Source: Chlamydiota bacterium
GTDB lineage: Bacteria; Auribacterota; JACPWU01
Assembly (NCBI GenBank): GCA_016196885.1
Contig: JACPWU010000039.1
Span: forward strand, 30,001 to 62,000
DNA: 32,000 nt
Reading direction: 5' to 3'
Shown in pieces: positions 2-20,821 of this stretch (within the stretch, counting starts at the first letter, position 1; the number at the start of each line of letters is the position of its first letter). The position numbers were made by a program, and so were the translations under genes. The notes under the pieces were generated by a model. That model saw nothing but the letters and a program-made list of their open reading frames with translations. It was not told the origin of the DNA and ran no database searches.

Positions 2-400
2 TTGAGAATAGTGGCCGAGATTTCTTCTTTGGCTCGGGAGGGAACAGGGGAACTTCTTCAAGAGGTGCTGGAACTTTATCGGGAGATGATGGGAGATGAA
101 CTGAAGGACTTTAACCAGCTTCTCACACTTTTAAAAACTTTTATTCGCATGGTCAATTTCCATCATGATTTTGAGACGCTGGTCAATGAGGGAAGAATTG
201 GGAAGAGGAATAATGAGACCTATTATGTGAGTTTGAGAGATTTGAGCAAGGTCAAGGAGATGGTTCAAGCGGAGTTTGAAGCGGGTGTTCCTTTGCGGGT
301 TGCGGCGCGACGAGCGATTCAGAGACGCTATTATAACCGCTTTTTAAGGGAGGATCGGTCTTTGATTGAGAAACTCATGCGTCGTCATGGCCTTCTCGAT
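2..400 (+). other. Lid/C-terminal helical part of an additional B-type AAA+ module whose core lies upstream of the window
   Basis: NETYYVSLRDLSKVKEMV...RRAIQRRYYNRF aligns by eye with the post-B1 lid ESYYTSLRDLSRMVRVMV...PKAIHRIYGLRM and with the post-B2 lid GYFISPRDIAKIIDVL. Confidence 0.6.
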
Positions 401-3400
401 GTAGACGAGAAGCTGGATTATGACTATGTCTTTGAAGGGCTTGAGCCAGAATCTCGCAATATCAAGGTTTATGAACAGAAAAAAGGGCGCATGGTTCAAC
501 GAAAGGGGGAAGTCGAAGAAGTTCGCACGGGAGAGAAGGTGCCTCTTTTAAATATTCAGTTGGAGAAAAATTTTGAAGGTCTTCGCCGCGACGAAGTTTT
601 AAATGCCAGCACGCGGCGGGGTTTGGCCCAGCTTCTTTCAGCCCTTGGGGGACCTGCCAAGAAATTTTTTAATCCCGTTTTTCTTTTTGGGATTACCTCC
701 GGGGGAAAAAGCACTTTGGCCCGAATCGCAGCGAAGATGCTGGGTGTAGGATATACCCGCATTCAGATTACGGCCCAGACGGATGAGTTTGAACTGTTTG
801 GAAGTTTCCAGCCTTATGAAATTAACATTTCTCCTCAGGATGCGTACGAACGCATTCAGGATGGACTCGCTCGTGGAGAATTTATCAAATTGGAAGAGGC
901 TTTGAGTCGACTAGAGTTTGGTGAAGAGGGAAAACTTTTTCAAAAACTTTTGGAGGGTCACGAGGACTGGGCCGAAAAGTATCATGGGCTTCAAGGTGAG
1001 GCCAGGTTGAAATATCAAAGAGAAATTTTGGAAATATATCTTAAAACAAAAGTGGGTGATTATTTAAGACGGACCGCGGCCATTCTTTATAAAACACAAG
1101 AGGGGCATGTGGTGAGTGCTGAAGAACTTGCTTTTGTAGAGGTGTTTAAGAGCTTGGCCATGCTCATGGACCAGAAAATGGGGCTGCGTTTTGTGGATGG
1201 ACGTTTTCTCACGGCTTATCGCAAGGGGGATTTAATCTTGCTGGATGAAGCCAATCTTGCCAATGAGGAAATGGTCGGGGTTCTCTATCAGATGCTGACA
1301 CGCGGCTATTTGGAATATCAGGGGAGGCTGATTGAATTGGCTCCTGGCGCCACGCCCCGTGTCGTTGCCACGGGGAATCCCTCAACGGATTCGGGACGCA
1401 ATCGGATGAGCGAGGCCTTTATGAATCGCTTTGAAATTATTCAGGTCGAGGATATGAACCCGGATGAAATGGCGGATCTTATTGTGGATCAATTGGCTGT
1501 AGACGGAGTGAATCTGGAACAGGATTTAGGAATGACGCGTGAGCAATTGATTCAATTTGCTGAGATTCAGCGCTCTCTCAACAATCTTCTCAGAACAGGA
1601 AAATTTTCCAATATGGGACAAGAGGAAAATTATGTTTTTACCCTTCGAAATCTTTTGAGAATTGTGGGGGATGTGAGAGAAAGAAAGGCTGCGGGACATC
1701 CCGTCAATATTGAGACCTGGATTCAGGAGGCCTATCTCGAGTATCAGGGGATTTTGGTGAGGCGTGATTGTTATACACCGGATCCGAGCGGTAACTCAGA
1801 CTATCGGTCTTTGCGCAATGTGTTTAGCGTGGCGCTGGGATATAAAAGAGAGGGGAAAACGCCAGAAGAAACACTGGATACGCTTATTCAGGAACGATTC
1901 GGCAAAATTGAGGGAGCCGATGATGCTGTTCAACATCGCATGGAGCTCGATGGTCTGAGCTTGGAAGCGGGTCATTCCGAGGAGGAGGTTTTGGTGGATG
2001 AATTGATTGAGGTTGAATCCACAAAATTTATTGAGACCTATATTGCGAAAGGGATTCGCCAGAGACAGGCTGTTTTATTTGTGGGCCAGTCTGGAGGTGG
2101 AAAAACGGATGTGATTGCGAATGTGGCTAGAAAAACAAATCGAAAATACGTCAGTGTTTCTTTGGGGGATGCCACTTTAGAAAGTTTGATTGGGACGGTG
2201 GAATATGACCGCAGGGAAAAGCGGTTTAAGTATCGGCCGGGCATTTTGGTGATGGCCATGGAAGAGGGATCTATTTTGGCTCTGGAAGAATTGAATATGG
2301 CCAAATCCGGGATTTTGGAAATTTTGAATGAATATTTTGATGAAGGGACATTCACCAATCCTTTCACTTTAGAAAAAGTGAAAGTTCATCCTGATTTTAG
2401 ACTTTTTGCAACCATGAATCCCATGGAAGGAACCCGCGGGGCCAATGAAGGAAGGACTTTGCTTTCTCCTGCTCTTCGAAGCCGATTTCGAGAAGTTTGG
2501 GTGCCTCATGAGAAGACGGATGATGAGATACGTACAATTTTAAAAGGGAAGTTTGAGCAACTCCTCCCTGTAGAAAAAAGTTCTACCTCCGAGGTGACCA
2601 GACTGCCCGAAAATCCCATTATTCCCCTCCCTCGATGGGAGGGGTTAGGGGAGGGTGAACTCAAATCCACCCCCTCCCTAACCCTCCCCACAAGGGGGAG
2701 AGAACTTTTAGGACAGCCTGTACCTGGAGGTGACGAAGATCCCCTTATCGAAAATATGTTGTCTTTTTATCGCCGCTATCAAGGGGATTTTGAGGAAATT
2801 CGAGATGAAAGCTATTACACCAGCTTGAGGGATTTAAGTCGGATGGTGCGGGTGATGGTGCTTCATGTAAAAGAACATGGAATGACGCTAGAAGAAGCTT
2901 TGCCCAAGGCGATTCATCGGATTTATGGCTTGAGAATGACCACGCCCCAGGCAAAGGAGAAATATCAAAAGATTTTATCCGATTTAAATATTCCACAATA
3001 TCAGCCCGGGCAAATTATTTTTGAAAGAGATGAAAACTTCCTTCATGTTTATGAGGTTTCAACAAAATCTCTTAACTCCCCCAACCCTTTAAATGGAGTA
3101 ACTCCCCAGGCCCCTCTTAACCTAAGAGGGGGTATTGATGGAGTAACTCCCCAGGCCCCTCTTAACCTAAGAGGGGGTATTGATGAAAGAGGGGAGGACG
3201 ACAAAACGCTGATTGCGCAACTTCGCATTGATGATCTCCAGAGTCAAACAGCATCCCAAGTTCGTTCAGAGTTAATCTCTCAGGGGGTTGGAGAAGACGA
3301 ACTCGATTCAAGAGCGTCCGAGGCCTTAGACACTCTCCTCTCATCTTCCCAGCTTGTTCAAGACCCCAAAACGGTAGCTGAACTTTCTCATCTTTTAGAA

Positions 3401-6400
3401 GCCTTTGATGTGGGAGAAGAAAGGCATGCAAAAGGGCGATTTAATCCTGTGCTTTTCATGGGAGGGACCAGTGGAGGAAAAAGCAGCAAGGTTCGATATG
3501 CGGCTTTAAATCTTTTGGGTCAGGGGTATACCCGCATTCAATTTAATGAAAGAACAGATGAAATCGACCTTTTGGGAGGCTATGAGCCTCGCGAGGTCAA
3601 AATGGATTTTGATGAGGCTTATCTTGTCTTGACCGAAGCGATGAAGAATGGTGAATGGATCAAAATTAAAAAAGCGCTTCAGGTTTGGAAAAAAGGTTCT
3701 CTTTCGTCAGCGGACGATAAGGCTTTTGAAGAGGAAGAAGCACGGCTTGGAATTGTCCAAGCCAATCAAGAGGCGATGGTGTTTGTTCAAAAATTGTTGC
3801 AGGATGCCTTTAAGGAAGGATCAAATATGGATCCTGAACTTCGCGAGCAGGCTCACCACAAAATAATTAACATGGCGTTCTTAATTAAAAATGGTGTCCT
3901 CAATGTGGAGTTGGAATTTAAAGAAGGTCGTTTCTTAAAGGCCTTGCGACGAGGGGATGTGGTGCTCTTAGATGAAATGAATTTGGCCAGCGAAGAGATT
4001 GTGGCTATTCTCTATCAGTTTTTGCTCACGGGCTATTTGGAATATTACGACCGCGGGCAAGGGAAGATTGCCAAAATTTTCCCTGGAAAAGGTTTTAAGC
4101 TCGCGGCCACGGCGAATCCAGACACTTACAGCGGGAGAAATCGCCTGAGCGAGGCCTTGATGAACCGTTTTGAGATTCATTACATTGAAGATATGGCTCC
4201 TTCGGAAATGGCTGAGATTGTGAATCGGGAGAATGGATTTGAAGGAGAGCGCCAAACGGCAGTGGAAAAATTGTCACAGTTTCAGTCCCTTTTAAATCAG
4301 AAAATGAGAGAGGGGGAGTTCTCCGGGATTTCTTCAGATCCTCAAGGAGGCTACATCTTCACCCTAAGAAATTTGAAGCGCATTGTCAAGGATGAAAGGA
4401 TGTTAGAGGAAATGGGCGAGACGAGTTCTTTCAGAGAGCTTATTTTGCGTGAGGCCTTTCTAGAGTATTCCAGTGTTTTGGGCAGGTCTCCAGAAAATTT
4501 AGCTAAACTCCAAGCGCTTTTTAAAGATTCAACTGAAGGATTTGGAATAGATGTTGAACTTCCAAATTTTGAATTTTCAAAAAATGCAGACGGCGTTTTA
4601 TCGATAGGCTCGATTAAGCTTGAGGAGGTTCGTGACGAGCCGGTTGAAGAAGATTTGGTGGAGCCCTTGGCCGCGGGTCCCCAGACCAATCGTATTCGTT
4701 ATCAAATAGCCAAGGGCTTTCTCGATCGCCGTCGTCCCATGCTTGTGGTCGGCCAATCGGGAGTTGGAAAAAGCGATGTGATTGGGGATATGGCCCGGGA
4801 GCTCAAGTGGAAATACAGGAGTGTATCCCTGGGAAATACCTCTTTAGAGGCTTTAGTCGGGACCTATACGATTGATCGAAACACAAAAAAACTGGTTTAT
4901 GTTCCTGGTATTTTAATTCAGGCCATGCGGGAAGGTTCTATCCTTGCTCTTGAAGAAATTAACATGGCTAGCCCCGCCCTGATCGAAATTTTAAATGAAT
5001 TTTTTGATGAGGAAACCTTCACCAATCCTATGACGGGAGAAAAGGAAAGCATTCACCCTCGTTTCAGACTTTTTGCGACGATGAATCCGGAACAAGGGTT
5101 AACAGGGCTGAATGGCGGTCGAAATGCCCTCTCGCCCTCCCTCCGAAGCCGTTTTAATGAGGTCTGGTTTCCAGAAAATCGCTCTCCCGAAGAAATGAAG
5201 GCTATCATTCGTCAAAAAATGATCAATCGAGGTGTTTTGGAAAAAATGGATTTTGCGGTTGATGAAATTTATCATGTGTATGATGAATATTTTAAAGCGG
5301 TTCTTTCCCAGAAAATCGGGGAAGATTCCAATGAGGGATATTTCATTTCTCCGAGGGATATTGCCAAAATCATTGACGTCCTGGCCGTAGATTTAAAAAA
5401 TGGTATTGAGCCTGCGAAGGCCCTTCAACATGCCTTTGAGCGCGTTCTCATTTATCGCCTCCATTCTGAAAAGGATCGGGTCTATGTTCAGAGTCAAATT
5501 CTGAAACAGACAAAGAAAGATCCCTACACCTGGGAGGAAAGCGAGACTGGTTCTGTCGTTAAGTGTGAGGGCGTCACATTGGGAACCATTTCTCCTGAAA
5601 TGTTGGGAGATTTTATTTTAACGGATCAATCCAAAACAGCCGTGGCCCGGATTCTGGATGCTTTGAGAACCGTTCCTGAAAATGCAAAGAGGCGGTTTAA
5701 TCCTTTGATGTTAATTGGCGATACATCCGTTGGAAAAAGCACCATGGCTGAGCTTGCAACAAGAATTTCTGCTAAACCCCTCACGCGAATTCAGATGAAT
5801 CAGCGTACGGATGAATCTGATCTTTTTGGCAGTTTCCATCCGGTTGAAGTGACTTTGGATAATACCCAAGCGTATGAAGTCGTGACAGAAGCGCTGCAAA
5901 AAAAGCAAATTCTTCGCATTCGACAGGCCCTCGAATATTTAAAGATTTCTAAAAAACGCATTACCGGTTCTTTGGGTCTTGAAGGGGATGTAAATCTTGA
6001 TGACAGCGTTCTTGAGCGCTATGTGCAGGAAATCCTTTTGAAGGGATTCAAAGAAGGGGATGCACGGTCAAGCCAGATTTTTAGAGATCTTGCTATTCTC
6101 CTGGCCAATGGAGGAACGGGAATCGATCTTGAATTTAAGAAAGGTCTTTTCTTACAGGCTATGAGACGAGGAGAAGCAGTTTTATTAGACGAACTCAATT
6201 TGGCGAGTGAGGATGCCCTGGCGCTCCTCTATCAGCTTTTAACCTTGGGATACATTGAGTTTCAGGGAGAGCGGATTTATCCCGCCGAGGGTTTTCAATT
6301 AATCGTCAGTCTCAATCCCTCTTTGGGATATACGGGCCGCAATCCCCTCAGCGAGGCCTTTATGGACCGTTTTGAGATTCATCATGTTCGGGAAATGAAA

Positions 6401-9400
6401 CCTGAAGAAATGGCCTTTATCATCCATCAAAAATACAAACTCGAGAGTCATGGAATTTCTTACGACGACGTTTTGAAACTGGCTCAAATGCAAACCCAAA
6501 TCGATCATTTGAGCCGAGAAGGCGGGTTTGACTTTTTCAACACGGACCGTTCATATCGTTTTGCCTTGAGAAATCTGGAAAGAATCGCCGAAGATTTTAT
6601 CGCCCGCGTCTCTCTCAAGCTGTCCGAAAACCAAACAATTCCCCTCCCTCGAGGGGAGGGGTTAGGGGAGGGTGAGGTCAAATCCACCCCCTCCCTAACC
6701 CTCCCCGCAAGGGGGAGGGAACTTTTCGGGAAGCCTGATGGGGGAGTTAGAGAAATTTTCCTAGAAGAAGCCTTCACGGAATATGGAACGCTTTTAGACC
6801 AGACGGATCGCAACATCCGAAAATTAGTCGGGCGAAATATTTCAAAAGATCTTTTTCAAGGGTTAGAGGCGGCTGTTATTCCTTCTTTGTGGGCTTTCTT
6901 GATCAAAGGAAAACATATTGATCCGAATGGAAGGCTTTTAGAATTCGAATCTTTGAATAAAGAAGGAGATATTATCATTTCTCCTAAGCCTGGAGAGGAG
7001 ACAAGAGTTCCCAAAAGAGTGATTTATCACCTTCTCAAAAATTCTCTGGGTCTTTTTAATCAATATTTTAATTGGGAGGGGATGGGACAATATGCTGAAA
7101 AGTTTGAACATACACAAGAGATTCTGCGGCTCAATGGTGTGGAGGTTTTGAAAAAACCTTCTGATACAGAAACCTTGGCTAATCTCATCGAGCCTCAAAC
7201 CCAGTTGCGTTCGACCGCTCTGACCCGGACTCAGGTGTTAAAGGGTTTTAGAGACGGGAAAGTGGTTGAGATCGGAGACGCTCAGGGCCAGGTGAAACAC
7301 GCACACCGATCTCGACCCGTTTTGATTGTGGGTCAATCGGGCGGAGGGAAAAGCGATATGGTGGGAGATATTGCAAGAGAGCTTCATTGGAAATACACGA
7401 GTGTGTCCCTGGGGGCGGCAACTGTCGATTCACTTATTGGTTCTTATGAATTAGATGAGGTCACAGGGGTTCTTCGTTTCCGAGAAGGTGTTTTGATTAA
7501 GGCCATGCGGGAAGGTTACTGCATTGTATTAGAAGAAATCAATATGGCAGATGCCGCGGTCATTGAGATTTTGAATGAATATTTTGATCGAGGGACATTT
7601 ACATTGCAGGAGCGAAGGGTGCAGGTAGATATTCATCTTGATTTTAGGCTTTTTGCCTCCATGAATCCAATTCAAGGAAAGATGGCCCAGAATTCAGGAC
7701 GTGTTGGACTCTCTCCCGCCTTGAGGAGCCGATTCCGTGAGGTATGGCTTCGCAGTGAGCGTACACGCGGGGAAGAATATCGCATCATGCTGGGGGGGAT
7801 TAAAAAATTTGTGGGACAGCTTTTGAAAGCGGGCACGCAGGATATTGGAGAGGTTCAGGAAAGTCTGGGGGAGGTGATTGAAAATTTAAGAGAGGGGGTA
7901 GGGACTCAAGGAACTCATCAAATGATGAGAAACAATTCAGGCGTTTTGTCTTCTTCTACAAGTGCGCAGGCCGCGGTCAGCGTTTCAACCATGAAAATGG
8001 CAACCCCTGTGGCTGGGGGTGGGAGTGGAGCTTCTGGAGGAGTAACTCAGACAGAAGATTTGGAAGGTAAGAAAAAAACGTATGTGGAAACCTTTGTTGT
8101 GGTGAGTGAAGGAAATGTCCATTTGGCGGAGTCTACTCCGGATGAGCGAGGTCAAACCCACTGGGCTTATGCTCCGGCGACGAACACGCTTTATTATCCA
8201 CCCGATGAATTGGCCACAACTCCCATCGATGAAATGGTGGGGGTTGGCATCCATGAATCCATGCACCGCTATGGAACGCGTTACTTGAGCATTTTTGAAG
8301 AATTTTTAGAGGAAAATAAACTCGCTGGAATGATTTTTAATATTTTGGAAGATGGTCGAATTGAAAATTGGGCCCGCTTGCGTTTGACAGGAACGGCGTC
8401 TTACTTAAGAAAGCTCAACGACAATAAAATCTTTAATAAGCCTATCGCCGAAATGTTTGCCTGGGAAGTCGAGATTCGGGAAGGCCCTCTGGCCGGTCAA
8501 AAAATCAAACGATCCTATTCATCCATGGTGCAAGACTTTTTTCTTTACCTGGCCAAACGTGGATCCGATTCCGATGCCAAAGAAAAAATCGCTGAAATTC
8601 TCGATATCATGGGCCAAGAATCCCAAGAACTTCGTCAAGATTTGGAAACACTCATGAATAAAGGGGTTTTTGGCGGAGCAAAGGATGAAGACATGCTTCA
8701 GAAAAAAATGAGGGGCGTTTTTTCTCTCGTACCCATCAAGACAGATGGACAGGGGCGTATTTTATTTGATCGGGATCCCACCGAGGAATACAAGGATGAG
8801 TTGGCCGAGGAGCAAGGGGTTATTATTCGAGAAGAGATGATGCCCATCGTTTATAAATGGGCCGTTCAGGATGTTCAGGAAGGCCGAGGGAAAGGTGAAG
8901 GGCAGGGTCAACCAGGAAAAGAAGGAGAGGGTGATGGGACTCCTGGCACAGGCAAAGTCAAACCGGGTAAACCCGGAGGGGGCGGCAAGCCTATTTCGCC
9001 CAAAGACTGGAAAAAAATCTGGGAATCTTTAAATCCTGAGGATAAAAGGGCGTTAGAAAAAGCCCTCAAAGAAGGTTTGGGGGACAAGGCAGCTGACCGG
9101 ACCAAATCAAATTCAAAGGATTTTCAAGAGGCTCAGAAAGACGCCACTTTAAGCGCTCCCATTTCTGAGAGAGATCGTTTGCTTAAACAGGTGGGAAACC
9201 GGATTCATGAGCTCACTGGATACCTTCGCGAGATTATTCTCAATGCGACTCGTCCCAAATGGAAACAACCCGAAAGAAGAGGGAGATTCATTGCCCGTCT
9301 TCTCCTCAATGCCATTCCCCGTGGCGCGGTCGGGAAAATGCTCTTCTTCGCCAAGCGTGAGATTCCGACCAAAAAGAATGTGACTTTTACCCTTGTCATT

Positions 9401-12400
9401 GATGCAAGCGAAAGTATGGACGATATGCAAAGGATGGATTCTGCGGTGGGTTATAACGCCCTGAAAGGCGCTTTTATCATGATGGAAACTTTAGAAAATT
9501 TGGGGATCGATTTTAATGTCAGGTGGATTGGAGATACGACAGGTTTATACAAGCGATTTAAAAATCAACCTAATCCGGAGGGAGAAAATATTCCCAACAG
9601 TTTTTCGACGCGTATGGATCGGGAAAAAATCATTCAATCCATGTACGAGTCCATCGGTCAAAAAGGGGGGACAAATGATGCGCTTGCGATTCAAGAAACG
9701 ATCAAAGATATTGAGCGCTATGGGGCTGAAAATCACTATGTAACCGTATTTACGGATGGTATGGGGACGATTCCTCAGGTTCAGGAAATTCTGCAAAAAG
9801 TTCGTGAAAACAAAGGGCGGATCGGGCGATCCAAAACTGAATTTATTGGGGTTGGACTCGGAAATGCAACCAAAATTGTCCCTGATGTTTATGGAAAAGA
9901 ATATTCCATCCATTTGAAGGATCATGAGCTTAGGGAATTACCGGTTCGAATCAAGCGCCTCATGGAGCGTTTGATCAATCGGATTTATCGAGAGGATACC
10001 ACTCGAAAAGCGCCTAGCCCTCTTTCTGGGACTTCCATGAGCGGGGCCAGTGTGGATGGGATGATTGGGCAAGGAAATGCGATTGTTGAGTTCCTAGAGG
10101 AACTCAACAGTTCAAGGTTCAAAAGTTCAAAAGATCAAAGGTTAGAACAGGAGTTTGCGGATGTATTAGACGGACATGAGGTCTATGTCTTTGACGCTCT
10201 CATCAAGGGGCCGCATGATTTTGTGCTGGGGTATCGGGATAAAGTGAATAAAAGGCTTTATGTTTCACGAGAAGTCCTTCACCGCTTGGAAGGCCGTCCG
10301 AATGTTTTACGGGAATATCTCTTTCACGAAGCCCATTGTGACCCGGATGTCGAGGGAAGCCATTATCAAACCATCGCTGAGCAGCAAAGGCTCTATCCCG
10401 AAAATTACATAGGCATGGGATATTTTAGAAATGAAGAGGGGGTTCTTCTTTATTATGCAAGAAATCCCTATCTCAATGAAATGCTTGGATTTTTATGGGA
10501 AATGATACATCCCCTTGAAAAATGGTTTCCGTTTCTGGCTCGTCTTTCTCCTAAGATTGCGAAAGGGGTGTTGGGAAAAGTTTTACGTTCAGTGATCGAA
10601 GAAGAGTTAAAGAATGAAGCACCCCGAAAATATCCTTATAAATACAGAAGCTTTTCTCAAGCCAAGTCTTCTTATGAGAAGGAGCATGGAAAGATTCCTG
10701 AAATATGTCTGAATAGGATGGAGATGCTGCCTTCTTACAGGAAGAGGATTAAACAATTTGGTTTTGAAGATATGTTGCTTTTGCTACCGAACTCTCCTGC
10801 CCGCATGCCCGAGCTTCTAAGACTACTTGAGTGTTTGGAAAAAGTATTTGGAGAGGATGTCCCTCTTTTCTGGCCAGATTTTATGCGTTTGGTTAGTGGA
10901 TCGAGGGATCGAGAGGGCTTGGACTGGAATCCAGGTCTTTTGGAAGGGCTCTTGGATTCTTTTGATGTGCGTTTACCAAGCTATTATTCTCGACAGGAAA
11001 GAAAGAGATGGTTTCAAGAAGCCGTCGATCTGAACTTACGGGCAGGAGCATACGCCTTCGATTTTTGGGAGAGAGCCATGAGGTTCAATGTACTTGGGCT
11101 TGCACTGGATCAACGACAACTCCAAGAAGTCGGAAATATTGTGTTATCTGCAAATGAGAAGTTAGGATCTATGAGAGACAAAGATTTTTTCTCTATCGTT
11201 GGAAGTTGGGGGGAAGCGTTCAAGAGTATAGATCAATTAAGGGAGGCCGTTCAGAAAATCGTTGCAGTGATGAGTCCCTCATACATTCACGATTCGGAAG
11301 CTGCGGACATTGCCTCTATATCGAGAGAATCCAGTGGTTTTGCTGTTGTCTGGAAACTCTGGAGTCGGGTTCAAGAGAGTGAAAGAGAAGTTTTAATTTC
11401 TATGGTTACCAAGATTTGGAGACTTAATATTCAGACCCCTTCTACTAAAGCAAGAATTCTAGAGCATTTCCAATCCATCGCCGATGAAAGCGGCCCGGAC
11501 GCGATTGTCGGGGATTTGGAGGCGTTGTTGGAACGCCTTAAGAAGCCTGTTGGGGATGATGAAGGGGATGTGTATGAATTAGCGACTCCATTGACAGTTC
11601 TAACTCAAGGAGGTTATTTGCCATCAACTTCTTTTTCTCAGGGAGGCTACATTGCCCAAGGGACAGAAGCCAAGGCAGAGTTTTTAGAGAATTTAGCTGC
11701 GGGGAGATATGAGTTTTGCCGAAGGAAGGATTTTGAGGAGGGTTTTAAAAAGATTTTAGAGGGTTATGAGGTTTATGTCGTTCCTGCAATTATCAAGGGA
11801 CCGGATGATTTTTTCCTGGGAACGAAGGACTTCACTCAAAGGAGAATTTATGTGACAGCAGAAGTTTTGGGAATTTTATGCCAATGGTATCGTGATCCGA
11901 AAGACTGTCGTCGTTTGATCAGCGAATATTTCTGGCATGAGGTTCATGAAGAACCTTCACCTGAGCGGCATGAGAGTCTCATTCAGGAGCAGCAAGTCAA
12001 ATTTAAGCAGAATTACACGGGTAAGGGCTACAAGAAAGGGTCTGGTTACTTGATAGATCCTCAGAAGCAAGGCAAGGTTGCCAAAGGAGAATTGGGAGAC
12101 GCCCTGTGTCATTTGATCACCAAAACCCTTCAAGGGGGGCAAACGCCTAAAGATTTCGTGAAGGATGCCTTTAAAGCCTATCGTGCGATTTATGGGAAGG
12201 AAGTCGATTTGGATCAGTGGGATAATGTTGAGGGTGCGTTGATTCCTAACCTGGATCTTTGGGTGGAAATTTTTGGCGTGAAAAGGCTTTTGGAATATAA
12301 CGCCCTTTTCAACAAAGGTTTCCTTTCCGAAGATTATTTTGAGATGTTAACGGGTCTTTCTTTTTCCTATGCATCGGGGGACCCTTTTAAAATGCTGGAA

Positions 12401-15115
12401 TGCATGGAAATGTTCGCTGACGGTGATGACAATTTAAGATCCACTGTGTATTTTTTCGACGAAAGCCTGGAATCAGTGGTTTCTTTGATCCCCAATGGTC
12501 CATCATTTAAAGCTCTCATTTTCAAGCTTATTGAACTCTCTGATGCGATCTTTCGTTCGCCCTGGCATAGTACTGGCCAAAACCGAAGGGCGTATTGGGA
12601 ATTTTTCCTTGAGATGATGAATGTTTTAAAAAAGCGAAATGTCCTCCAGGATGATGGCATGCTTATGGAATTTCTGGATGCGGTGATTGCGGTGATTCAT
12701 CAGGAAGAAGGGGCCGGGCTTCTGGCTTTTGATTTTTTTGGAGAAGGGGTGTGCGAAAGGGAGTCAGAGAATTTTCTGAGAGATGGGAGGCAATTCACTG
12801 AATTTTTCCAGCCTTGGAGCGCTGCTTTAAGTCAGTTGCCTCGAGGGGTCGAAGGGGACGATGAGTCCGAACGTGTTACGGGTGCCGTTTGGAATTTGGG
12901 TCCTGGGCCACTTTTGGAGCGAGGTCCGGTGGCCCTTGGAAGATTATGTTCTGCGACTGGAAAACTGGGTGATGAAAAATACGAGCGATTCCATGCCTTC
13001 TCAACCATTGAGGGTTTGTGGAGGGATGGAATGGATGAATATTTGGGTGAGGTGGTTGAATATTTTGAGTTACTGAAAGACGAATTGGAGGGGGATGTTG
13101 GAGTGCAATGCGCCATGCTTTTTCAGAAGTTAAGTCACTCAGCGGCTAGATTTGGAAAAGGGAGAGAGGTTTTTGAATCGCTTGCTCGTTTGCGAGAGCG
13201 TGAGAGTCGTCAGAGTTGTGTAGATTTTGTCATCGATCTTGTGCAGAGTCGGGAGACTTTTGGCCATCGAATTGCGTTGTATCTTCCCGGGCTCGCCCGT
13301 TTATGGCAATCGGAAGGTTTTGCACTGTTTCAGGAGGAAGAAGCAGAGAAAGAAAGAGGACATTATTTCGATGCAGTTGTCTGGCCTGTGATTCAAAAAA
13401 TGGGATCTAAGAGGTTGTTGCAATATTACTGGGAAGATTTGGTTGAGGCAAGTTGTGCCTCATTCCCGCGAACAGGCTTTTCGGAGAGCTCTGAGGCCTT
13501 GATTGATTTGAACGGGATTCTAGGTCGTGAATTGGACGAACATTGGCCCATTTTTATGAAGATGGCAAGGGCGGGAAACGCCTCTATTGAGGAATTTATC
13601 GTTGCCATGGCTGATGGCTTTGAGCTCTGGAGAAAGAGGAAAAAAGATTTGCTTGAGGTGCTTAAAAAACTTTATTCTCGTAGGGGTTCGCAACAAGCTG
13701 CTGTGATCGACCCTGTTATCGAGATTGTGAGCTGGGCAAAGGGTCATCCCTCTGATGCAAATCATGTGTTGAATCACCTAAAAGATATCGCCGACGAAAG
13801 CGGCCCCGACGCGATTGTAGGGGATTTAGAGGTGTTTTTGGCGAGGTTTCAGAATCCGGGTGAGGAGGATGATGCCGACCCCTATGCTTTTGCTGGACTG
13901 TCATCAGGTTCAATGGGACCGCTTTTGCTTTCTCCTCTTGGGACATTGTCTTCTGGAATTGCTGCCCCTACCGGTACTTTGGAAGGTGCTTTGACTTTGT
14001 GGATTCATTCTGAATTTAAAGGAGATGCGGAGCTTCGGGCTTATATTGGGCGAGGTTCTGCGGCCCAGGTTCTTGAAGCATTGGGATCGGCTCTTGAAAT
14101 ATATTTTGGAAGATTGAGCATCCATCTGGATCGACAGAACGAGATTTTAGGTCGATTGGCCAGTTTAGTGGCTCAAGCGCATCAAGGTGGGAAAGAATCG
14201 GACCCTCTCGCTCAACTGATTGAAGAATTTTTGGGGATGAAGGCGGCTGAACGGGGTCGCCTCGAAAGTCAGATCAGTTCTCGTTTTAGCGAGACAGGGA
14301 GTGTGACATGGTCTTTGGAACAAGACAGTTGGACTTTTAGAGAAGGGGATGAAAATCTTTCGTGGACAGATCAGGACACGGAATTTGTAAATCAGCTCAA
14401 TGAATCAAACACAGACCTTCGCGAGCTTCACTTTGTAGGACGTGAAGGTTTTAGAAATGCTCTGGGCCAATTGGCCATCAGAAGGAGGGTGATAGAAACG
14501 GATGTGTCTTTGATACAGGGGGTAGAAGCAACACTTTCTGAGGATAAAAGTCTGCAATACATCATTATTGATATAGACCTTTTAGTAGACCAGGACGGTC
14601 TTGAGCTTCGTCAAATTCTTCAAAAAATTCCAGAAGGGGTTCGTGTCATTATTTTAGGATCTGAAAATTCATCGGATCAGCGCAAAATCCTTCAAACCCG
14701 ATGGGGGATTGAGACAAATTCAAAACTTCAAGTGATTCAAGTTCCTCATCAAGAAAATAGAGGCCTAGCGGCCCTTCAGCTAATGTCAGGTGCTGTTCAA
14801 CCTTCCCAGATTCGTTTTCTAGGATGGACCGAAAACCAAAAAGAATACGGGATTGAGGCCTTGAGTCAGCGGGGAATTTCTGTTGTTCTTGGCAATAAGT
14901 CCGTGACCTTAGCTCAAATGCTTTGTGCGGCTGACACGCCAGAAAAATATCGAGCGCTGATGGAAAAACTTGAGATTTCCAAGGACGAAATTAATCTGAT
15001 GATGGCTACAATAGAGGAGGGGCATCAGGTTCTTTCACCTCCGGGCATGCGGCGTCTTTTGAATAGCCTTGATGACCTTAGGCAGTCCGAGCAAGAACGT
15101 TTGAGATCGATGTAA
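2..15115 (+). CDS. Giant multi-AAA+ (MoxR/AAA_5, dynein/midasin-like) ATPase fused to an HExxH metallopeptidase-like domain, a VWA/MIDAS domain and a ~1,700-aa C-terminal extension; 5'-truncated by the window edge
   Basis: Uninterrupted ORF from the window edge to TAA at 15113-15115 (5,037 codons, no start in the window). It has six Walker A/Walker B pairs, HESMH at 8252-8266 and MIDAS DASES at 9401-9415. Overlapping and antisense track ORFs are short and look like shadows. Confidence 0.92.
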   Translation: MRIVAEISSLAREGTGELLQEVLELYREMMGDELKDFNQLLTLLKTFIRMVNFHHDFETLVNEGRIGKRNNETYYVSLRDLSKVKEMVQAEFEAGVPLRVAARRAIQRRYYNRFLREDRSLIEKLMRRHGLLDVDEKLDYDYVFEGLEPESRNIKVYEQKKGRMVQRKGEVEEVRTGEKVPLLNIQLEKNFEGLRRDEVLNASTRRGLAQLLSALGGPAKKFFNPVFLFGITSGGKSTLARIAAKMLGVGYTRIQITAQTDEFELFGSFQPYEINISPQDAYERIQDGLARGEFIKLEEALSRLEFGEEGKLFQKLLEGHEDWAEKYHGLQGEARLKYQREILEIYLKTKVGDYLRRTAAILYKTQEGHVVSAEELAFVEVFKSLAMLMDQKMGLRFVDGRFLTAYRKGDLILLDEANLANEEMVGVLYQMLTRGYLEYQGRLIELAPGATPRVVATGNPSTDSGRNRMSEAFMNRFEIIQVEDMNPDEMADLIVDQLAVDGVNLEQDLGMTREQLIQFAEIQRSLNNLLRTGKFSNMGQEENYVFTLRNLLRIVGDVRERKAAGHPVNIETWIQEAYLEYQGILVRRDCYTPDPSGNSDYRSLRNVFSVALGYKREGKTPEETLDTLIQERFGKIEGADDAVQHRMELDGLSLEAGHSEEEVLVDELIEVESTKFIETYIAKGIRQRQAVLFVGQSGGGKTDVIANVARKTNRKYVSVSLGDATLESLIGTVEYDRREKRFKYRPGILVMAMEEGSILALEELNMAKSGILEILNEYFDEGTFTNPFTLEKVKVHPDFRLFATMNPMEGTRGANEGRTLLSPALRSRFREVWVPHEKTDDEIRTILKGKFEQLLPVEKSSTSEVTRLPENPIIPLPRWEGLGEGELKSTPSLTLPTRGRELLGQPVPGGDEDPLIENMLSFYRRYQGDFEEIRDESYYTSLRDLSRMVRVMVLHVKEHGMTLEEALPKAIHRIYGLRMTTPQAKEKYQKILSDLNIPQYQPGQIIFERDENFLHVYEVSTKSLNSPNPLNGVTPQAPLNLRGGIDGVTPQAPLNLRGGIDERGEDDKTLIAQLRIDDLQSQTASQVRSELISQGVGEDELDSRASEALDTLLSSSQLVQDPKTVAELSHLLEAFDVGEERHAKGRFNPVLFMGGTSGGKSSKVRYAALNLLGQGYTRIQFNERTDEIDLLGGYEPREVKMDFDEAYLVLTEAMKNGEWIKIKKALQVWKKGSLSSADDKAFEEEEARLGIVQANQEAMVFVQKLLQDAFKEGSNMDPELREQAHHKIINMAFLIKNGVLNVELEFKEGRFLKALRRGDVVLLDEMNLASEEIVAILYQFLLTGYLEYYDRGQGKIAKIFPGKGFKLAATANPDTYSGRNRLSEALMNRFEIHYIEDMAPSEMAEIVNRENGFEGERQTAVEKLSQFQSLLNQKMREGEFSGISSDPQGGYIFTLRNLKRIVKDERMLEEMGETSSFRELILREAFLEYSSVLGRSPENLAKLQALFKDSTEGFGIDVELPNFEFSKNADGVLSIGSIKLEEVRDEPVEEDLVEPLAAGPQTNRIRYQIAKGFLDRRRPMLVVGQSGVGKSDVIGDMARELKWKYRSVSLGNTSLEALVGTYTIDRNTKKLVYVPGILIQAMREGSILALEEINMASPALIEILNEFFDEETFTNPMTGEKESIHPRFRLFATMNPEQGLTGLNGGRNALSPSLRSRFNEVWFPENRSPEEMKAIIRQKMINRGVLEKMDFAVDEIYHVYDEYFKAVLSQKIGEDSNEGYFISPRDIAKIIDVLAVDLKNGIEPAKALQHAFERVLIYRLHSEKDRVYVQSQILKQTKKDPYTWEESETGSVVKCEGVTLGTISPEMLGDFILTDQSKTAVARILDALRTVPENAKRRFNPLMLIGDTSVGKSTMAELATRISAKPLTRIQMNQRTDESDLFGSFHPVEVTLDNTQAYEVVTEALQKKQILRIRQALEYLKISKKRITGSLGLEGDVNLDDSVLERYVQEILLKGFKEGDARSSQIFRDLAILLANGGTGIDLEFKKGLFLQAMRRGEAVLLDELNLASEDALALLYQLLTLGYIEFQGERIYPAEGFQLIVSLNPSLGYTGRNPLSEAFMDRFEIHHVREMKPEEMAFIIHQKYKLESHGISYDDVLKLAQMQTQIDHLSREGGFDFFNTDRSYRFALRNLERIAEDFIARVSLKLSENQTIPLPRGEGLGEGEVKSTPSLTLPARGRELFGKPDGGVREIFLEEAFTEYGTLLDQTDRNIRKLVGRNISKDLFQGLEAAVIPSLWAFLIKGKHIDPNGRLLEFESLNKEGDIIISPKPGEETRVPKRVIYHLLKNSLGLFNQYFNWEGMGQYAEKFEHTQEILRLNGVEVLKKPSDTETLANLIEPQTQLRSTALTRTQVLKGFRDGKVVEIGDAQGQVKHAHRSRPVLIVGQSGGGKSDMVGDIARELHWKYTSVSLGAATVDSLIGSYELDEVTGVLRFREGVLIKAMREGYCIVLEEINMADAAVIEILNEYFDRGTFTLQERRVQVDIHLDFRLFASMNPIQGKMAQNSGRVGLSPALRSRFREVWLRSERTRGEEYRIMLGGIKKFVGQLLKAGTQDIGEVQESLGEVIENLREGVGTQGTHQMMRNNSGVLSSSTSAQAAVSVSTMKMATPVAGGGSGASGGVTQTEDLEGKKKTYVETFVVVSEGNVHLAESTPDERGQTHWAYAPATNTLYYPPDELATTPIDEMVGVGIHESMHRYGTRYLSIFEEFLEENKLAGMIFNILEDGRIENWARLRLTGTASYLRKLNDNKIFNKPIAEMFAWEVEIREGPLAGQKIKRSYSSMVQDFFLYLAKRGSDSDAKEKIAEILDIMGQESQELRQDLETLMNKGVFGGAKDEDMLQKKMRGVFSLVPIKTDGQGRILFDRDPTEEYKDELAEEQGVIIREEMMPIVYKWAVQDVQEGRGKGEGQGQPGKEGEGDGTPGTGKVKPGKPGGGGKPISPKDWKKIWESLNPEDKRALEKALKEGLGDKAADRTKSNSKDFQEAQKDATLSAPISERDRLLKQVGNRIHELTGYLREIILNATRPKWKQPERRGRFIARLLLNAIPRGAVGKMLFFAKREIPTKKNVTFTLVIDASESMDDMQRMDSAVGYNALKGAFIMMETLENLGIDFNVRWIGDTTGLYKRFKNQPNPEGENIPNSFSTRMDREKIIQSMYESIGQKGGTNDALAIQETIKDIERYGAENHYVTVFTDGMGTIPQVQEILQKVRENKGRIGRSKTEFIGVGLGNATKIVPDVYGKEYSIHLKDHELRELPVRIKRLMERLINRIYREDTTRKAPSPLSGTSMSGASVDGMIGQGNAIVEFLEELNSSRFKSSKDQRLEQEFADVLDGHEVYVFDALIKGPHDFVLGYRDKVNKRLYVSREVLHRLEGRPNVLREYLFHEAHCDPDVEGSHYQTIAEQQRLYPENYIGMGYFRNEEGVLLYYARNPYLNEMLGFLWEMIHPLEKWFPFLARLSPKIAKGVLGKVLRSVIEEELKNEAPRKYPYKYRSFSQAKSSYEKEHGKIPEICLNRMEMLPSYRKRIKQFGFEDMLLLLPNSPARMPELLRLLECLEKVFGEDVPLFWPDFMRLVSGSRDREGLDWNPGLLEGLLDSFDVRLPSYYSRQERKRWFQEAVDLNLRAGAYAFDFWERAMRFNVLGLALDQRQLQEVGNIVLSANEKLGSMRDKDFFSIVGSWGEAFKSIDQLREAVQKIVAVMSPSYIHDSEAADIASISRESSGFAVVWKLWSRVQESEREVLISMVTKIWRLNIQTPSTKARILEHFQSIADESGPDAIVGDLEALLERLKKPVGDDEGDVYELATPLTVLTQGGYLPSTSFSQGGYIAQGTEAKAEFLENLAAGRYEFCRRKDFEEGFKKILEGYEVYVVPAIIKGPDDFFLGTKDFTQRRIYVTAEVLGILCQWYRDPKDCRRLISEYFWHEVHEEPSPERHESLIQEQQVKFKQNYTGKGYKKGSGYLIDPQKQGKVAKGELGDALCHLITKTLQGGQTPKDFVKDAFKAYRAIYGKEVDLDQWDNVEGALIPNLDLWVEIFGVKRLLEYNALFNKGFLSEDYFEMLTGLSFSYASGDPFKMLECMEMFADGDDNLRSTVYFFDESLESVVSLIPNGPSFKALIFKLIELSDAIFRSPWHSTGQNRRAYWEFFLEMMNVLKKRNVLQDDGMLMEFLDAVIAVIHQEEGAGLLAFDFFGEGVCERESENFLRDGRQFTEFFQPWSAALSQLPRGVEGDDESERVTGAVWNLGPGPLLERGPVALGRLCSATGKLGDEKYERFHAFSTIEGLWRDGMDEYLGEVVEYFELLKDELEGDVGVQCAMLFQKLSHSAARFGKGREVFESLARLRERESRQSCVDFVIDLVQSRETFGHRIALYLPGLARLWQSEGFALFQEEEAEKERGHYFDAVVWPVIQKMGSKRLLQYYWEDLVEASCASFPRTGFSESSEALIDLNGILGRELDEHWPIFMKMARAGNASIEEFIVAMADGFELWRKRKKDLLEVLKKLYSRRGSQQAAVIDPVIEIVSWAKGHPSDANHVLNHLKDIADESGPDAIVGDLEVFLARFQNPGEEDDADPYAFAGLSSGSMGPLLLSPLGTLSSGIAAPTGTLEGALTLWIHSEFKGDAELRAYIGRGSAAQVLEALGSALEIYFGRLSIHLDRQNEILGRLASLVAQAHQGGKESDPLAQLIEEFLGMKAAERGRLESQISSRFSETGSVTWSLEQDSWTFREGDENLSWTDQDTEFVNQLNESNTDLRELHFVGREGFRNALGQLAIRRRVIETDVSLIQGVEATLSEDKSLQYIIIDIDLLVDQDGLELRQILQKIPEGVRVIILGSENSSDQRKILQTRWGIETNSKLQVIQVPHQENRGLAALQLMSGAVQPSQIRFLGWTENQKEYGIEALSQRGISVVLGNKSVTLAQMLCAADTPEKYRALMEKLEISKDEINLMMATIEEGHQVLSPPGMRRLLNSLDDLRQSEQERLRSM
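614..1765 (+). other. AAA+ module A1 (AAA_5/MoxR-like, with large insert)
   Basis: Walker A GITSGGKST at 689-715 and Walker B LILLDE at 1232-1249. ATGNP is sensor-1-like, followed by GRNRMSEAFMNRF. An insert of roughly 130 aa, predicted helical, lies between FGSFQPYEI and FVDGRFLTAY. Lid motif is YVFTLRNLLRIV. Confidence 0.85.
2024..2940 (+). other. AAA+ module B1 (AAA_5/MoxR-like, compact) plus lid
   Basis: Walker A GQSGGGKT at 2084-2107 and Walker B variant ILALEE at 2273-2290. Also FATMNP, SPALRSRF and the lid motif YYTSLRDL. The lid is interrupted by the repeat element at 2621-2709. Confidence 0.85.
2621..2709 (+). repeat. G/C-tract palindromic repeat element, copy 1, inserted in-frame in the giant CDS
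   Basis: 89 nt, with 5 mismatches to 6638-6726. The flanks are non-homologous (B1 lid versus A3 lid). Internal hairpins are CCCCTCCC-tcgat-GGGAGGGG, a long G-arm/C-arm pair, and CTCCCC-acaa-GGGGGAG. It is translated as IPLPRWEGLGEGELKSTPSLTLPTRGREL. Confidence 0.9.
3095..3184 (+). repeat. Perfect 2 x 45-nt tandem duplication, in-frame in the giant CDS
   Basis: ggagtaactccccaggcccctcttaacctaagagggggtattgat occurs at 3095-3139 and again at 3140-3184, encoding GVTPQAPLNLRGGID twice. Each unit contains the hairpin CCCCTCTTA-acc-TAAGAGGGG. Confidence 0.95.
3371..4490 (+). other. AAA+ module A2
   Basis: Walker A GGTSGGKSS at 3461-3487 and Walker B VVLLDE at 3959-3976. Also ATANP, GRNRLSEALMNRF and the lid motif YIFTLRNLKRIV. 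The insert is homologous to the A1 insert (begins DFDEAYLVLTEAM). Confidence 0.85.
4690..5475 (+). other. AAA+ module B2 plus lid
   Basis: Walker A GQSGVGKS at 4751-4774 and Walker B variant ILALEE at 4940-4957. Also FATMNP, SPSLRSRF and the lid motif YFISPRDIAKII. Confidence 0.85.
5630..6800 (+). other. AAA+ module A3
   Basis: Walker A GDTSVGKST at 5717-5743 and Walker B AVLLDE at 6176-6193. Also SLNPS, GRNPLSEAFMDRF and the lid motif YRFALRNLERIA. The lid loop is interrupted by the repeat element at 6638-6726. Confidence 0.85.
6638..6726 (+). repeat. G/C-tract palindromic repeat element, copy 2, inserted in-frame in the giant CDS
   Basis: The offset from copy 1 is 4,017 nt, a multiple of 3, so the reading frame is the same. 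It is translated as IPLPRGEGLGEGEVKSTPSLTLPARGREL. Paralogous modules A1 and A2 have only a short loop at this position. Confidence 0.9.
7210..7765 (+). other. AAA+ module B3
   Basis: Walker A GQSGGGKS at 7331-7354 and Walker B variant CIVLEE at 7520-7537. Also FASMNP and SPALRSRFREVW. Confidence 0.85.
8070..8400 (+). other. HExxH metallopeptidase-like domain (resembles the DUF2201_N-type domain found N-terminal to VWA in MoxR partner proteins)
   Basis: HESMH is at 8252-8266, preceded by TNTLYYPPDEL...PIDEMVGVGI and followed about 25 aa later by NILEDGRIENW. From memory, this pattern matches the putative metallopeptidase domain that accompanies VWA-like domains next to MoxR ATPases. Confidence 0.55.
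8875..9000 (+). other. Low-complexity G/K/E/P-rich linker
   Basis: Translated sequence is EGRGKGEGQGQPGKEGEGDGTPGTGKVKPGKPGGGGKP. Confidence 0.8.
9371..9990 (+). other. von Willebrand factor A (VWA) domain with MIDAS motif
   Basis: TFTLVIDASESMDD carries DxSxS at 9401-9415. GGTND places Thr at 9671-9673 and VFTDG places Asp at 9755-9757. The beta-alpha alternation is typical of VWA. Confidence 0.85.
10073..10426 (+). other. C-terminal repeated domain, copy 1 (H-E-x-H-x8-H motif)
   Basis: GHEVYVFDALIKGPHDFVLGYRD...RLYVSREVL...EYLFHEAHCDPDVEGSH (motif at 10325-10363) aligns with copy 2. Confidence 0.6.
11660..12031 (+). other. C-terminal repeated domain, copy 2 (H-E-x-H-x7-H motif)
   Basis: GYEVYVVPAIIKGPDDFFLGTKD...RIYVTAEVL...EYFWHEVHEEPSPERH (motif at 11936-11971). 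Confidence 0.6.
14417..14749 (+). other. Possible divergent receiver (CheY-like)/flavodoxin-fold segment near the C-terminus
   Basis: YIIIDIDLLVDQDGLELRQILQKIPEGVRVIILGS resembles the beta3-alpha3-beta4 stretch of receiver domains. The upstream acidic pair and the beta5 Lys are not evident. Confidence 0.25.
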
Positions 15116-15119
15116 GCCA

Positions 15120-16406
15120 TTACCCTAAAACATGCCAAGGAACGGCAATGATTTTTTCACTCATTCGCACAATCTCATTCCCATTATAAATAAGAACGGC
15201 TGCTTGTGTTTCGGGGTATTCTTTCAGAAAAATTTGTAAATTTCTTGTATCGCTATACTGGGGGTTAGATGCGAGCTTGACCTCAAAGGCAATCAGATGA
15301 CGACCTTGCTCCAGAACAAAATCTACTTCTTTCCCATCCATAGTTCGCCAGTAAAACAGGCGAGGACGGGGCAGCAATAATTGGGATGTCACTTGAAGAT
15401 GTAAAAAAATTAAACTCTCAAACATAGCACCGATTTCTCTGGCTGCCTTTAAATCGTGAATGTCGCTGTAGCCGGCAAGATAAGCGCTGAGTGCGGGATC
15501 TATCCAATATATCTTGGGAGATTTCATCAAGCGCTTGGTCCGATTTCGGTGAAAGGCATTTACACGTGTGACGAGGCATGACGCCTCCAATAAATTGATA
15601 TAGCGATGAATGGTGGGCTGACTCATCGCGATGTCTCTGGCCAATGCAGATTGGTTCAATATATTTCCGGTCCTTAAGGCCAGGGCCTCCATCACGCGTC
15701 TAAAATCCGAGAGGGATTCAATTTGAGAAATTTGGCGTAAATCTCGTTCCAGATAAGTGGCGACATACCCTTCCCACCAGCGAACAATAGAATCTGGCCT
15801 CTTCAGGGTTAAAAGAGGAGGCATGAGGCCTTTGTGGATTTGTTCAATGGGGTCATGAGAGATATTGTTTTTGCCTTCATCAGGAAATTTTCCCCTGAAA
15901 ATATTTTTAATGAGTCCAGAGGGTATATGATTTTGGGTCTCACCCAGTGTCATGGGGTAGAGTGTAAAATAGACCGCTCGTCCCGCGAGCGTCTCACTCA
16001 CCTTTTCCATCAATAAGAGATTGGCTGAGCCTGAGAGAATAAAACGGTTTTTTCTCCCTCCCTCATCGACTTTTCTTTTGATGGCCAATAGGAGAGAAGG
16101 GACGCGTTGAACCTCGTCTAAAACCATATTTTCTTCACTAGATAGAAGCGCCATTGGATCTTTCTGAGCCTGGTTTAGTAGGTCATAATCATCAAAACTA
16201 AGGTAACGCCACTTAGAAAATGGCGCTTCTTTTTGCAAAAGGGTGCTCTTACCCACCTGGCGGGGTCCTGTGAGGATCACGACGGGATGATCTTTCACGG
16301 CGGTTTGTATCTCGGATGTTAGCCACCGGGGTTTGTAATATAATTCATGATCTGAATGAATATCATTCATACCTTGAATAGTATTACAAATGAGTCGATC
16401 GGTCAA
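15120..16406 (-). CDS. AAA_14/DUF4143-family ATPase (COG1373-like) with PD-(D/E)xK-like C-terminal motif
   Basis: 428-aa ORF with Walker A GPRQVGKST and Walker B MVLDEVQ. The C-terminal DGKEVDFVLE...IAFEVK is encoded at about 15276-15329. An alternative start at M13 (MNDIHSD, 16370) is possible. Confidence 0.85.
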   Translation of the reverse strand: MTDRLICNTIQGMNDIHSDHELYYKPRWLTSEIQTAVKDHPVVILTGPRQVGKSTLLQKEAPFSKWRYLSFDDYDLLNQAQKDPMALLSSEENMVLDEVQRVPSLLLAIKRKVDEGGRKNRFILSGSANLLLMEKVSETLAGRAVYFTLYPMTLGETQNHIPSGLIKNIFRGKFPDEGKNNISHDPIEQIHKGLMPPLLTLKRPDSIVRWWEGYVATYLERDLRQISQIESLSDFRRVMEALALRTGNILNQSALARDIAMSQPTIHRYINLLEASCLVTRVNAFHRNRTKRLMKSPKIYWIDPALSAYLAGYSDIHDLKAAREIGAMFESLIFLHLQVTSQLLLPRPRLFYWRTMDGKEVDFVLEQGRHLIAFEVKLASNPQYSDTRNLQIFLKEYPETQAAVLIYNGNEIVRMSEKIIAVPWHVLG

Positions 16407-16467
16407 GGTGTTAGGTTAGAAATTTGGTTAGAAATAGCCTTCTCTTCTAGAAGGTATTGTGTTTCTT

Positions 16468-18837: not shown

Positions 18838-18861
18838 CACAGGGTGTTGAAAAAACAGAGG

Positions 18862-18943
18862 ATTCCCCTCCCTGGATGGGAGGGGTTAGGGGAGGGTGGA
18901 AAATACATCAAAAATCAAAATGTAAATATCAAAGGGGAGAGGA
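18862..18943 (+). repeat. G/C-tract repeat element, copy 3 (intergenic variant with the C-rich arm replaced)
   Basis: attcccctccctggatgggaggggttaggggagggtgg matches the left half of copies 1 and 2. The tail caaaggggagagg matches the element's 3' end. The centre is an unrelated A/T-rich stretch. It lies between the trmJ-like gene and era. Confidence 0.75.
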
Positions 18944-18973
18944 TGGATACGAAATTAAGGATAAGTGTGAATC

Positions 18974-20820: not shown

Positions 20821-20821
20821 A

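Follow-up and report, generated by a model that had tools for sequence, protein, structure and literature searches.

This study concerns a small palindromic element present in three copies in a 32,000-nucleotide stretch of bacterial DNA (contig JACPWU010000039.1, positions 30,001 to 62,000; this whole stretch is called the window), two of the copies lying inside one giant gene that encodes a midasin-like ATPase. The explanation that we consider likely is that the element is a non-autonomous mobile palindrome of about 122 bp, similar in kind to MITEs (small transposable elements with inverted repeats) and to REPINs, and that it has been inserted twice in frame in the ATPase gene. It is built of 15-bp terminal inverted repeats around two inverted G/C-tract units, each made of an 8-bp C-arm/G-arm hairpin, TTA and a second G-arm. 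Two separate insertions in the same orientation would have brought it into the alpha-helical lid subdomains of AAA modules 2 and 5, in each case into a loop.

Direct comparison of the segments 2621-2709 and 6638-6726 revealed, in agreement with the original prediction made from the sequence of the window, that they differ at only 5 of 89 positions (2636, 2659, 2660, 2690 and 2701), that both are on the + strand and that they are 4,017 nt apart, i.e. 3 × 1,339. They share the frame of the long open reading frame (ORF) 2..15115, in which they encode IPLPRWEGLGEGELKSTPSLTLPTRGREL and IPLPRGEGLGEGEVKSTPSLTLPARGREL, respectively. The remaining two sense frames run into TAG or TGA, and thus both copies do use the sole sense frame that is free of stop codons, as had been noticed; on the antisense strand, one frame of the element is likewise free of stops. 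When a 32-nt pattern of the core was searched for in the whole window with up to three mismatches allowed, it was found at 2624, 6641 and 18865 only, for an expectation of 0.00 in shuffled sequences, and neither relaxed hairpin patterns nor a right-half pattern added any copy to these three. The copy at 18865, previously described as a rearranged intergenic one (18862-18943), is indeed of this sort: it has kept its left end and its left unit whole (18840-18899), whereas the right unit has given way to A/T-rich sequence of similar length, in which only a piece of the last hairpin arm, CAAAGGGGAGAGG, is left at 18930-18942.

The host protein contains six AAA_5 modules (Pfam AAA_5, 6 stretches, E=2.7e-93) and matches the midasin structure PDB 6or5 with E=5e-61. 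It also has a long helical region and a DxSxS region of the VWA/MIDAS-like type, for which the VWA match is weak and below threshold (E=0.04). Its best database homologue, P0001, comes from an Omnitrophica metagenome-assembled genome (MAG) and is 44% identical to it; eukaryotic midasins come next, with 23-27% identity. The organism that carries the window is, to judge by the best homologue, probably an Omnitrophota bacterium.

The element had been taken to be 89 nt long, but the similarity between the two genic copies extends to about 122 nt (2599-2720 and 6616-6737, with 16 differences), at the exact ends of which are found 15-nt terminal inverted repeats of consensus CAGGCTGTCCGAAAA; in each copy, 12 of their 15 positions are complementary. 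Enclosed by these repeats is a doublet of a small palindromic unit, the right half of the element being the left half inverted. The layout of the unit is a C-arm, a loop, a G-arm, a linker of 2-3 nt, most often TTA, and a second G-arm with TG at its end, and the spacer between the left and right units of copy 1 is 10 nt long. As single-stranded DNA, the core folds into three hairpins: CCCCTCCC-loop-GGGAGGGG, a central stem in which TTAGGGGAGGGTG is paired with CACCCCCTCCCTAA, and CTCCCC-loop-GGGGAG. The G+C content of the element is 57-61%, against 45% for the host gene, and its only open frames are those of 40-residue low-complexity peptides, without a transposase ORF. Copy 1 is abutted on both sides by a 14/15-nt direct repeat, a possible target-site duplication; 0.035% of 20,000 random sites in the window score as high.

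P0001 can be aligned on both sides of each site and has a gap exactly where each insert lies, and when the modules of the window's own protein are aligned with one another, short unrelated loops are found at the insert positions in A1, A2, B2 and B3. Since the inserts are missing both from this closest homologue and from the paralogous AAA modules, they are secondary insertions into lid loops, a conclusion that had first been proposed from A1, A2 and B2. The module alignment also bears out the claim that the contexts, the lid of B1 and a lid loop of A3, are different: the two sites are not homologous, because insert 1 lies about 45 aa past the sensor-2 'SRF' motif of module B1 (AAA2) and insert 2 about 95 aa past the 'DRF' motif of module A3 (AAA5). 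Each insert adds 40 residues to the protein. For the first one, an AlphaFold2 model of module B1, derived from a four-sequence alignment and of poor quality (mean predicted local distance difference test score, pLDDT, of 55.8), lends weak support to a placement in a surface loop, as insert 1 is modelled as unstructured, with pLDDT <50, between two lid helices. Mapping onto the solved midasin structure 6or5 gave no position for it, the alignment stopping before the insert.

The opposite view would be that the peptide is an ancestral or convergently acquired protein feature, for example a linker motif, and not inserted DNA. It could draw on the related 'LPLPKGEGRGEGE'-type peptides present in predicted proteins elsewhere, but most of these database matches are ORFs running through arrays of similar repeats. 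Furthermore, neither P0001 nor the paralogous modules have the peptide, one of the three copies is intergenic and untranslated, and the two genic copies are 94% identical as DNA in the midst of protein that is about 20-35% identical (about 20% between the two module types). We thus hold this origin to be highly improbable. A word-index search came up empty both with the window peptide and with the UvrA insert described below, and an exhaustive HMMER search gave 7 matches, mostly ORFs through related repeat arrays. An illustration is provided by P0100, P0103 and P0104: these predicted 'proteins', present in public protein collections, are translations through tandem or dispersed arrays of related G/C-tract repeats in which the peptide LPLPKGEGRGEGE recurs, and they are probably spurious ORFs.

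Table 1. Positions in the window of the host gene, of the three copies of the element and of their parts
Feature	Coordinates	Strand	Description
Host gene	2..15115	+	ORF of 5,037 aa, open at window start; midasin-like ATPase
Element copy 1	2599..2720	+	Complete, 122 nt, in lid of AAA module 2 (B1); encodes RLPENPIIPLPRWEGLGEGELKSTPSLTLPTRGRELLGQP
Direct repeat, upstream member abutting copy 1	2584..2598	+	TACCTCCGAGGTGAC, imperfect
Left terminal inverted repeat, copy 1	2599..2613	+	CAGACTGCCCGAAAA
Left REP-like unit, copy 1	2624..2657	+	Hairpin CCCCTCCC-TCGAT-GGGAGGGG, then TTA and second G-arm GGGGAGGGTG
Right REP-like unit, copy 1	2668..2700	-	Left unit inverted: CACCCCCTCCCTAA + hairpin CTCCCC-ACAAG-GGGGAG
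Right terminal inverted repeat, copy 1	2706..2720	-	Reads CAGGCTGTCCTAAAA on minus strand
Direct repeat, downstream member abutting copy 1	2721..2734	+	TACCTGGAGGTGAC
Element copy 2	6616..6737	+	Complete, 122 nt, in lid loop of AAA module 5 (A3); encodes KLSENQTIPLPRGEGLGEGEVKSTPSLTLPARGRELFGKP
Element copy 3	18840..18944	+	Intergenic, ~30 nt upstream of Era GTPase gene

Copies 1 and 2 differ in 13 codons, with 9 non-synonymous and 4 synonymous changes, and by this count the peptide is not visibly under selection. The differences fall at 11 of 33 positions in the flanks and at 5 of 89 in the core, the flanks thus having diverged far more than the nucleotide core. Either the core would be conserved at the level of nucleotide sequence or structure, or the copies would descend from different source copies that share it. 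These figures are also pertinent to the question of whether there was a single primary insertion, the second copy having been generated within the gene through non-allelic gene conversion, ectopic recombination or local re-transposition. The identical orientation and frame, the presence in the same gene and the 94% identity of the cores are all compatible with such a course of events, and the internal repetitiveness of the host gene (families D1, D2 and D4) would favour ectopic exchange. However, the flanks of the two sites share no homology able to drive conversion, the sites are non-homologous and belong to different module types, and a third copy is intergenic; moreover, the divergence of the flanks and inverted repeats, far above that of the core, suggests separate source copies. 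A single insertion followed by copying is, in our opinion, unlikely.

Another possibility is an assembly artefact, in which contigs of different loci or genomes would have been joined through a shared repeat. That the repeat does fragment short-read assemblies is seen in the Logan assemblies of the same two samples, where contigs of 1-3 kb either start inside copy 3 or end at another intergenic repeat family. The frame is nevertheless continuous over 15 kb, the six AAA modules come in the same order as in P0001 and midasin, and 16 copy-specific differences distinguish the two copies; an artefact is therefore extremely improbable. The breaks in the Logan contigs fit a multi-copy element, whose copy count they do not give.

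Two independent insertions of a mobile palindrome are the preferred explanation, and three circumstances may have let them persist. The first is that both landed in the one sense frame that has no stop codon, the second that the net length added preserves the frame downstream, and the third that a peptide rich in Pro, Gly, Glu, Arg, Ser and Leu, and probably disordered, would be tolerated by a surface loop. More generally, whichever open frame is used, the codons of the G/C tracts specify Pro, Gly, Glu, Arg, Ser and Leu, and we infer that read-through is tolerated for this simple reason. As regards movement, mobilisation as part of a composite transposon was envisaged and rejected: paired direct copies at two loci in other genomes (L005 and L037) flank a 5'-nucleotidase-like gene and a P-type ATPase gene, and no transposase.

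A scan of one genome per species of the Genome Taxonomy Database (GTDB) with the exact 21-mer of the left unit, GGGAGGGGTTAGGGGAGGGTG, revealed at least 119 stretches that contain it. They come from about 70 assemblies, as counted by accession prefixes, and from at least 11 phyla. In 1.2e12 positions of uniform composition, chance alone would give a 21-mer about 0.3 matches. The carriers are found among the Sphingomonadales (cultured isolates included), other Alphaproteobacteria and, with one MAG, the Gammaproteobacteria; among the Syntrophobacterales and other Desulfobacterota, the Brocadiales and other Planctomycetota, the Nitrospirota and the Nitrospinota; and among the Spirochaetota, WOR-3, Acidobacteriota, Chloroflexota, Ignavibacteriota/Kapaibacteria and several Patescibacteria. 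The core, as identified by its sequence, is thus not restricted to the lineage of the window, and the claim that the element is a dispersed repeat, which the intergenic copy of the window had already favoured, is strengthened by these stretches.

The similarity goes beyond the pattern that was searched for. Among the matches listed, the complementary C-arm, which lies outside the pattern, is almost always present, and an inverted right unit follows 7-63 nt downstream in at least one third; 38 of 40 right units from other genomes form perfect hairpins of at least 6 bp, a proportion to be read with the leaning of unit selection towards hairpins. The loop of the hairpin is TTGAT in 31 of the 115 matches listed, from many phyla, and GCTTGC in Sphingomonadales. 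There are at least four variants of the arms, changed on both strands: CCCCTCCC/GGGAGGGG, CCTCCCCC/GGGGGAGG, CCCTCCCCC/GGGGGAGGG and CCCTCCCC/GGGGAGGG. The flanks of the core are lineage-specific, an example being a longer conserved palindrome in a Syntrophobacteraceae MAG, and the terminal inverted repeats of the window's copies were seen at none of the other loci. By a crude ORF call, the core matches listed are mostly intergenic, with 27 and 17 between tandem genes, 18 between convergent and 10 between divergent ones, a distribution usual for repeats of the REP type. The plasmid collection searched contributed only unannotated matches of 27-43 nt to the right half, on plasmids and chromids of rhizobia and related Alphaproteobacteria. 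In the viral contigs a single match to the 21-mer was found, on one contig (L122), so that phages do not suggest themselves as a vector. In the metagenomes of the Joint Genome Institute (JGI), a pattern made of the right end and inverted repeat retrieved only one unrelated intergenic doublet (L123).

Related copies are also read through in other proteins. One example is a Sphingorhabdus UvrA that carries a full doublet in antisense and is thereby 65 residues longer between two positions which, in the UvrA of Geobacillus (PDB 2r6f), are separated by 4 residues. In an Ignavibacteriota Maf protein, a single unit corresponds to about 10 extra residues relative to YhdE (PDB 4p0e). Units are likewise in frame in a UvrD/PD-(D/E)XK protein of Nitrospinae (a helicase-nuclease), a TMEM260-like protein of Anaerolineae, a glycerophosphotransferase/methyltransferase of Thermodesulfovibrionales and a GT4 enzyme of Uhrbacteria, so that glycosyltransferases are among the hosts. 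Of the six hosts, five use the antisense frame that reads SPSPNPS. TTGAT, the commonest loop of the first hairpin at the other loci (L003-L121), creates a TGA codon in the sense frame that serves in the window; the loops found in the window itself (2632-2636, 6649-6653 and 18873-18877) are TCGAT, TCGAG or TGGAT, with which that frame stays open.

What the core represents on this larger scale is a more delicate question. As the core is of low complexity, its matches across phyla could partly reflect convergence in a small sequence space; the shared loop would argue for more than convergence. We would propose, tentatively and with rather more doubt than confidence, that the core unit and its arm variants (CCCCTCCC-loop-GGGAGGGG-TTA-GGGGAGGGTG) may constitute one undescribed, pan-bacterial REP-like module. 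Spread by horizontal transfer or through conserved unknown machinery, such a module would be present in at least 11 phyla, Patescibacteria and Omnitrophota included, would lie inside longer palindromes that are lineage-specific and would repeatedly give rise to Pro/Gly-rich loops in housekeeping proteins.

One may also ask whether the element is kept in the ATPase gene for a function of its own, either as a very stable mRNA hairpin that would pause ribosomes between subdomains or as a Pro/Gly/Glu-rich loop of service to the ATPase. Several properties would suit this idea. As RNA, the 89-nt core folds into a single long hairpin, with -48.4 and -58.5 kcal/mol in the two copies; the flanks have changed much more than the core, while the peptide changes freely; the hairpin arms covary across the family; and the G-rich half has the form of a canonical four-tract G-quadruplex motif, with -16.7 kcal/mol when taken alone. 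Yet the closest homologue and all the paralogous modules work without the insert, most members of the family are intergenic, with inconsistent orientation and distance to genes, the hairpin fold beats the quadruplex in the complete element, and the ratio of non-synonymous to synonymous changes given above carries no sign of selection on the peptide. Retention for such a function appears quite improbable. Two narrower roles were considered and rejected. A G-quadruplex switch has a real four-tract motif in its favour, but loses to the hairpin fold in the complete element; a portable Shine-Dalgarno or 5' hairpin role of the left unit is suggested by the start codons that in some cases lie a few bases downstream, but is at odds with the same inconsistency of orientation and gene distance.

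Returning to insertion of a mobile palindrome, several observations weigh against it. Neither a transposase nor a REP-associated tyrosine transposase (RAYT) nor a parent insertion sequence (IS) was found in the window, no Y1 transposase domain was detected in the ten non-giant ORFs of the window that were scanned, and no transposase lies between paired copies at other loci. From the source organism only three copies are seen, all within 32 kb. No match to the exact subfamily was obtained in the JGI metagenomes with a spacer-specific pattern, and the convergence considered above would, to the extent that it applies, reduce what the matches in other phyla contribute. There is no flanking direct repeat to be found at copy 2. 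Besides, 122 nt is not a multiple of 3: either the true ends are off by 1-2 bases or the duplication helps to keep the frame. Lastly, the structural model of module B1 is of low confidence, and the placement of the host among the Omnitrophota depends on one homologue.

The window contains other repeats. In the giant gene itself, the linker that follows module B1 contains, at 3093-3182, a perfect tandem duplication of 45 nt (15 codons, giving GVTPQAPLNLRGGID twice), each copy having its own 9-bp hairpin CCCCTCTTA-ACC-TAAGAGGGG; another small palindromic insert may have been duplicated here recently, or the assembly may be at fault. The giant gene is directly followed, on the - strand, by two adjacent paralogous AAA_14 + DUF4143 ATPase genes (15120-17643). 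A near-perfect palindrome of 166 nt at 17909-18074 (69-nt arms, 91% complementary, 28-nt spacer) occupies the intergenic region between divergent DUF4143 ATPase and SpoU methylase genes, and its sequence is unrelated to the G/C-tract element. A separate intergenic family, of ACTCACCCCTCACGACT-type palindromes around a T-run, is represented at 20821-20888, 23637-23704, 28792-28859 and 31550-31643; its members follow four + strand genes, are terminator-like, and are places at which Logan contigs of the same sample end. Palindrome clusters TTGTAGTCGCC-CGATTCATCG-GGC, at 26434-26579 and 27722-27807, flank in inverted orientation an arginine N-succinyltransferase-like gene (26632-27672); the combination of GTAG and a hairpin resembles classical REPs, and the flanked gene is AstA-like and does not encode a transposase. 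An A/T-rich inverted repeat of AAATCCAAAATC-type units (25311-25443; 54-nt arms, 83% complementary) lies between convergent GH57 branching-enzyme and PAP2 genes, and similar AAATCCAAAATC sequence follows the G/C-tract unit at a Falkowbacteria locus (L099).

The in-frame survival of selfish palindromes is among the few documented routes by which new peptide segments enter proteins, and it is best known from Rickettsia. The present case extends this process to a giant midasin-like ATPase of an uncultured lineage. Should the unit prove to be a single family, few bacterial repeats would be as cosmopolitan, and it would be tractable for studying how such repeats move and why their hairpin core is conserved, and a pan-bacterial module, if real, would amount to the general version, outside Rickettsia, of the phenomenon described for Rickettsia palindromic elements (RPEs). 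There is a practical side as well, in that the element fragments assemblies of short reads and is a source of spurious low-complexity ORFs in protein databases.

A search for previous descriptions gave little. No part of the window matched an Rfam family at the gathering score, the matches of the element up to an E of 10 were confined to generic hairpins or miRNA precursors, and at 18 other loci no Rfam family overlapped the motif. In the library searched, no paper was found that contains the DNA strings or the peptides, and none relevant on MITEs shared across phyla. The kind of phenomenon is already known. The RPEs (Ogata et al. 2000, via PMC10969869) resemble the element in being palindromic and about 100-150 bp long, in lying within unrelated protein genes, where in-frame read-through adds a short peptide and does not destroy the host protein, and in having intergenic members too. 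The original prediction was right to point to them as a precedent; its statement that such survival is uncommon elsewhere has to be corrected, since according to the review (PMC10969869) the in-frame fusion of intragenic MITEs with host genes is 'not unusual' outside Rickettsia, RPEs being the extreme case. What was not expected is the unusually broad distribution of the core, in at least 11 phyla, and its read-through in housekeeping proteins. The likeness to RPEs is one of behaviour; the host lineage is different and so, probably, is the sequence, and membership of the RPE family is not claimed, because the best homologue of the host protein is from an Omnitrophica MAG and not from Rickettsiales. 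In this organism, two genic copies are documented, and the G/C-tract double-hairpin core occurs in many phyla, whereas RPEs are described from one genus.

With REPINs and REPs (repetitive extragenic palindromic sequences; PMC3116915, PMC3337134), the element shares the two inverted palindromic units that are separated by a short spacer and form one long hairpin, the occurrence of single units as well (copy 3 and many loci), and a mostly extragenic, multi-copy distribution. In contrast to REPINs, it has no RAYT gene in the window and no GTAG-like tetranucleotide beside the hairpin, and it has terminal inverted repeats and a possible target duplication, which are not made by RAYT-type transposition. 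It also departs from the extragenic location of REPs, two of the three window copies being intragenic, although most relatives elsewhere are intergenic. ERIC, BOX and the Nezha/Anabaena MITEs (PMC10969869) are, like the element, small, bordered by terminal inverted repeats, devoid of transposase and occasionally fused in frame to host genes. Unlike these MITEs, the element has no known parent insertion sequence, a flanking duplication at only one of two copies, and an internal core common to several phyla in the presence of lineage-specific ends. Without claiming membership of any named family, we conclude that the core is closest to REPINs in its architecture, and that the terminal inverted repeats and the possible duplication are MITE-like.

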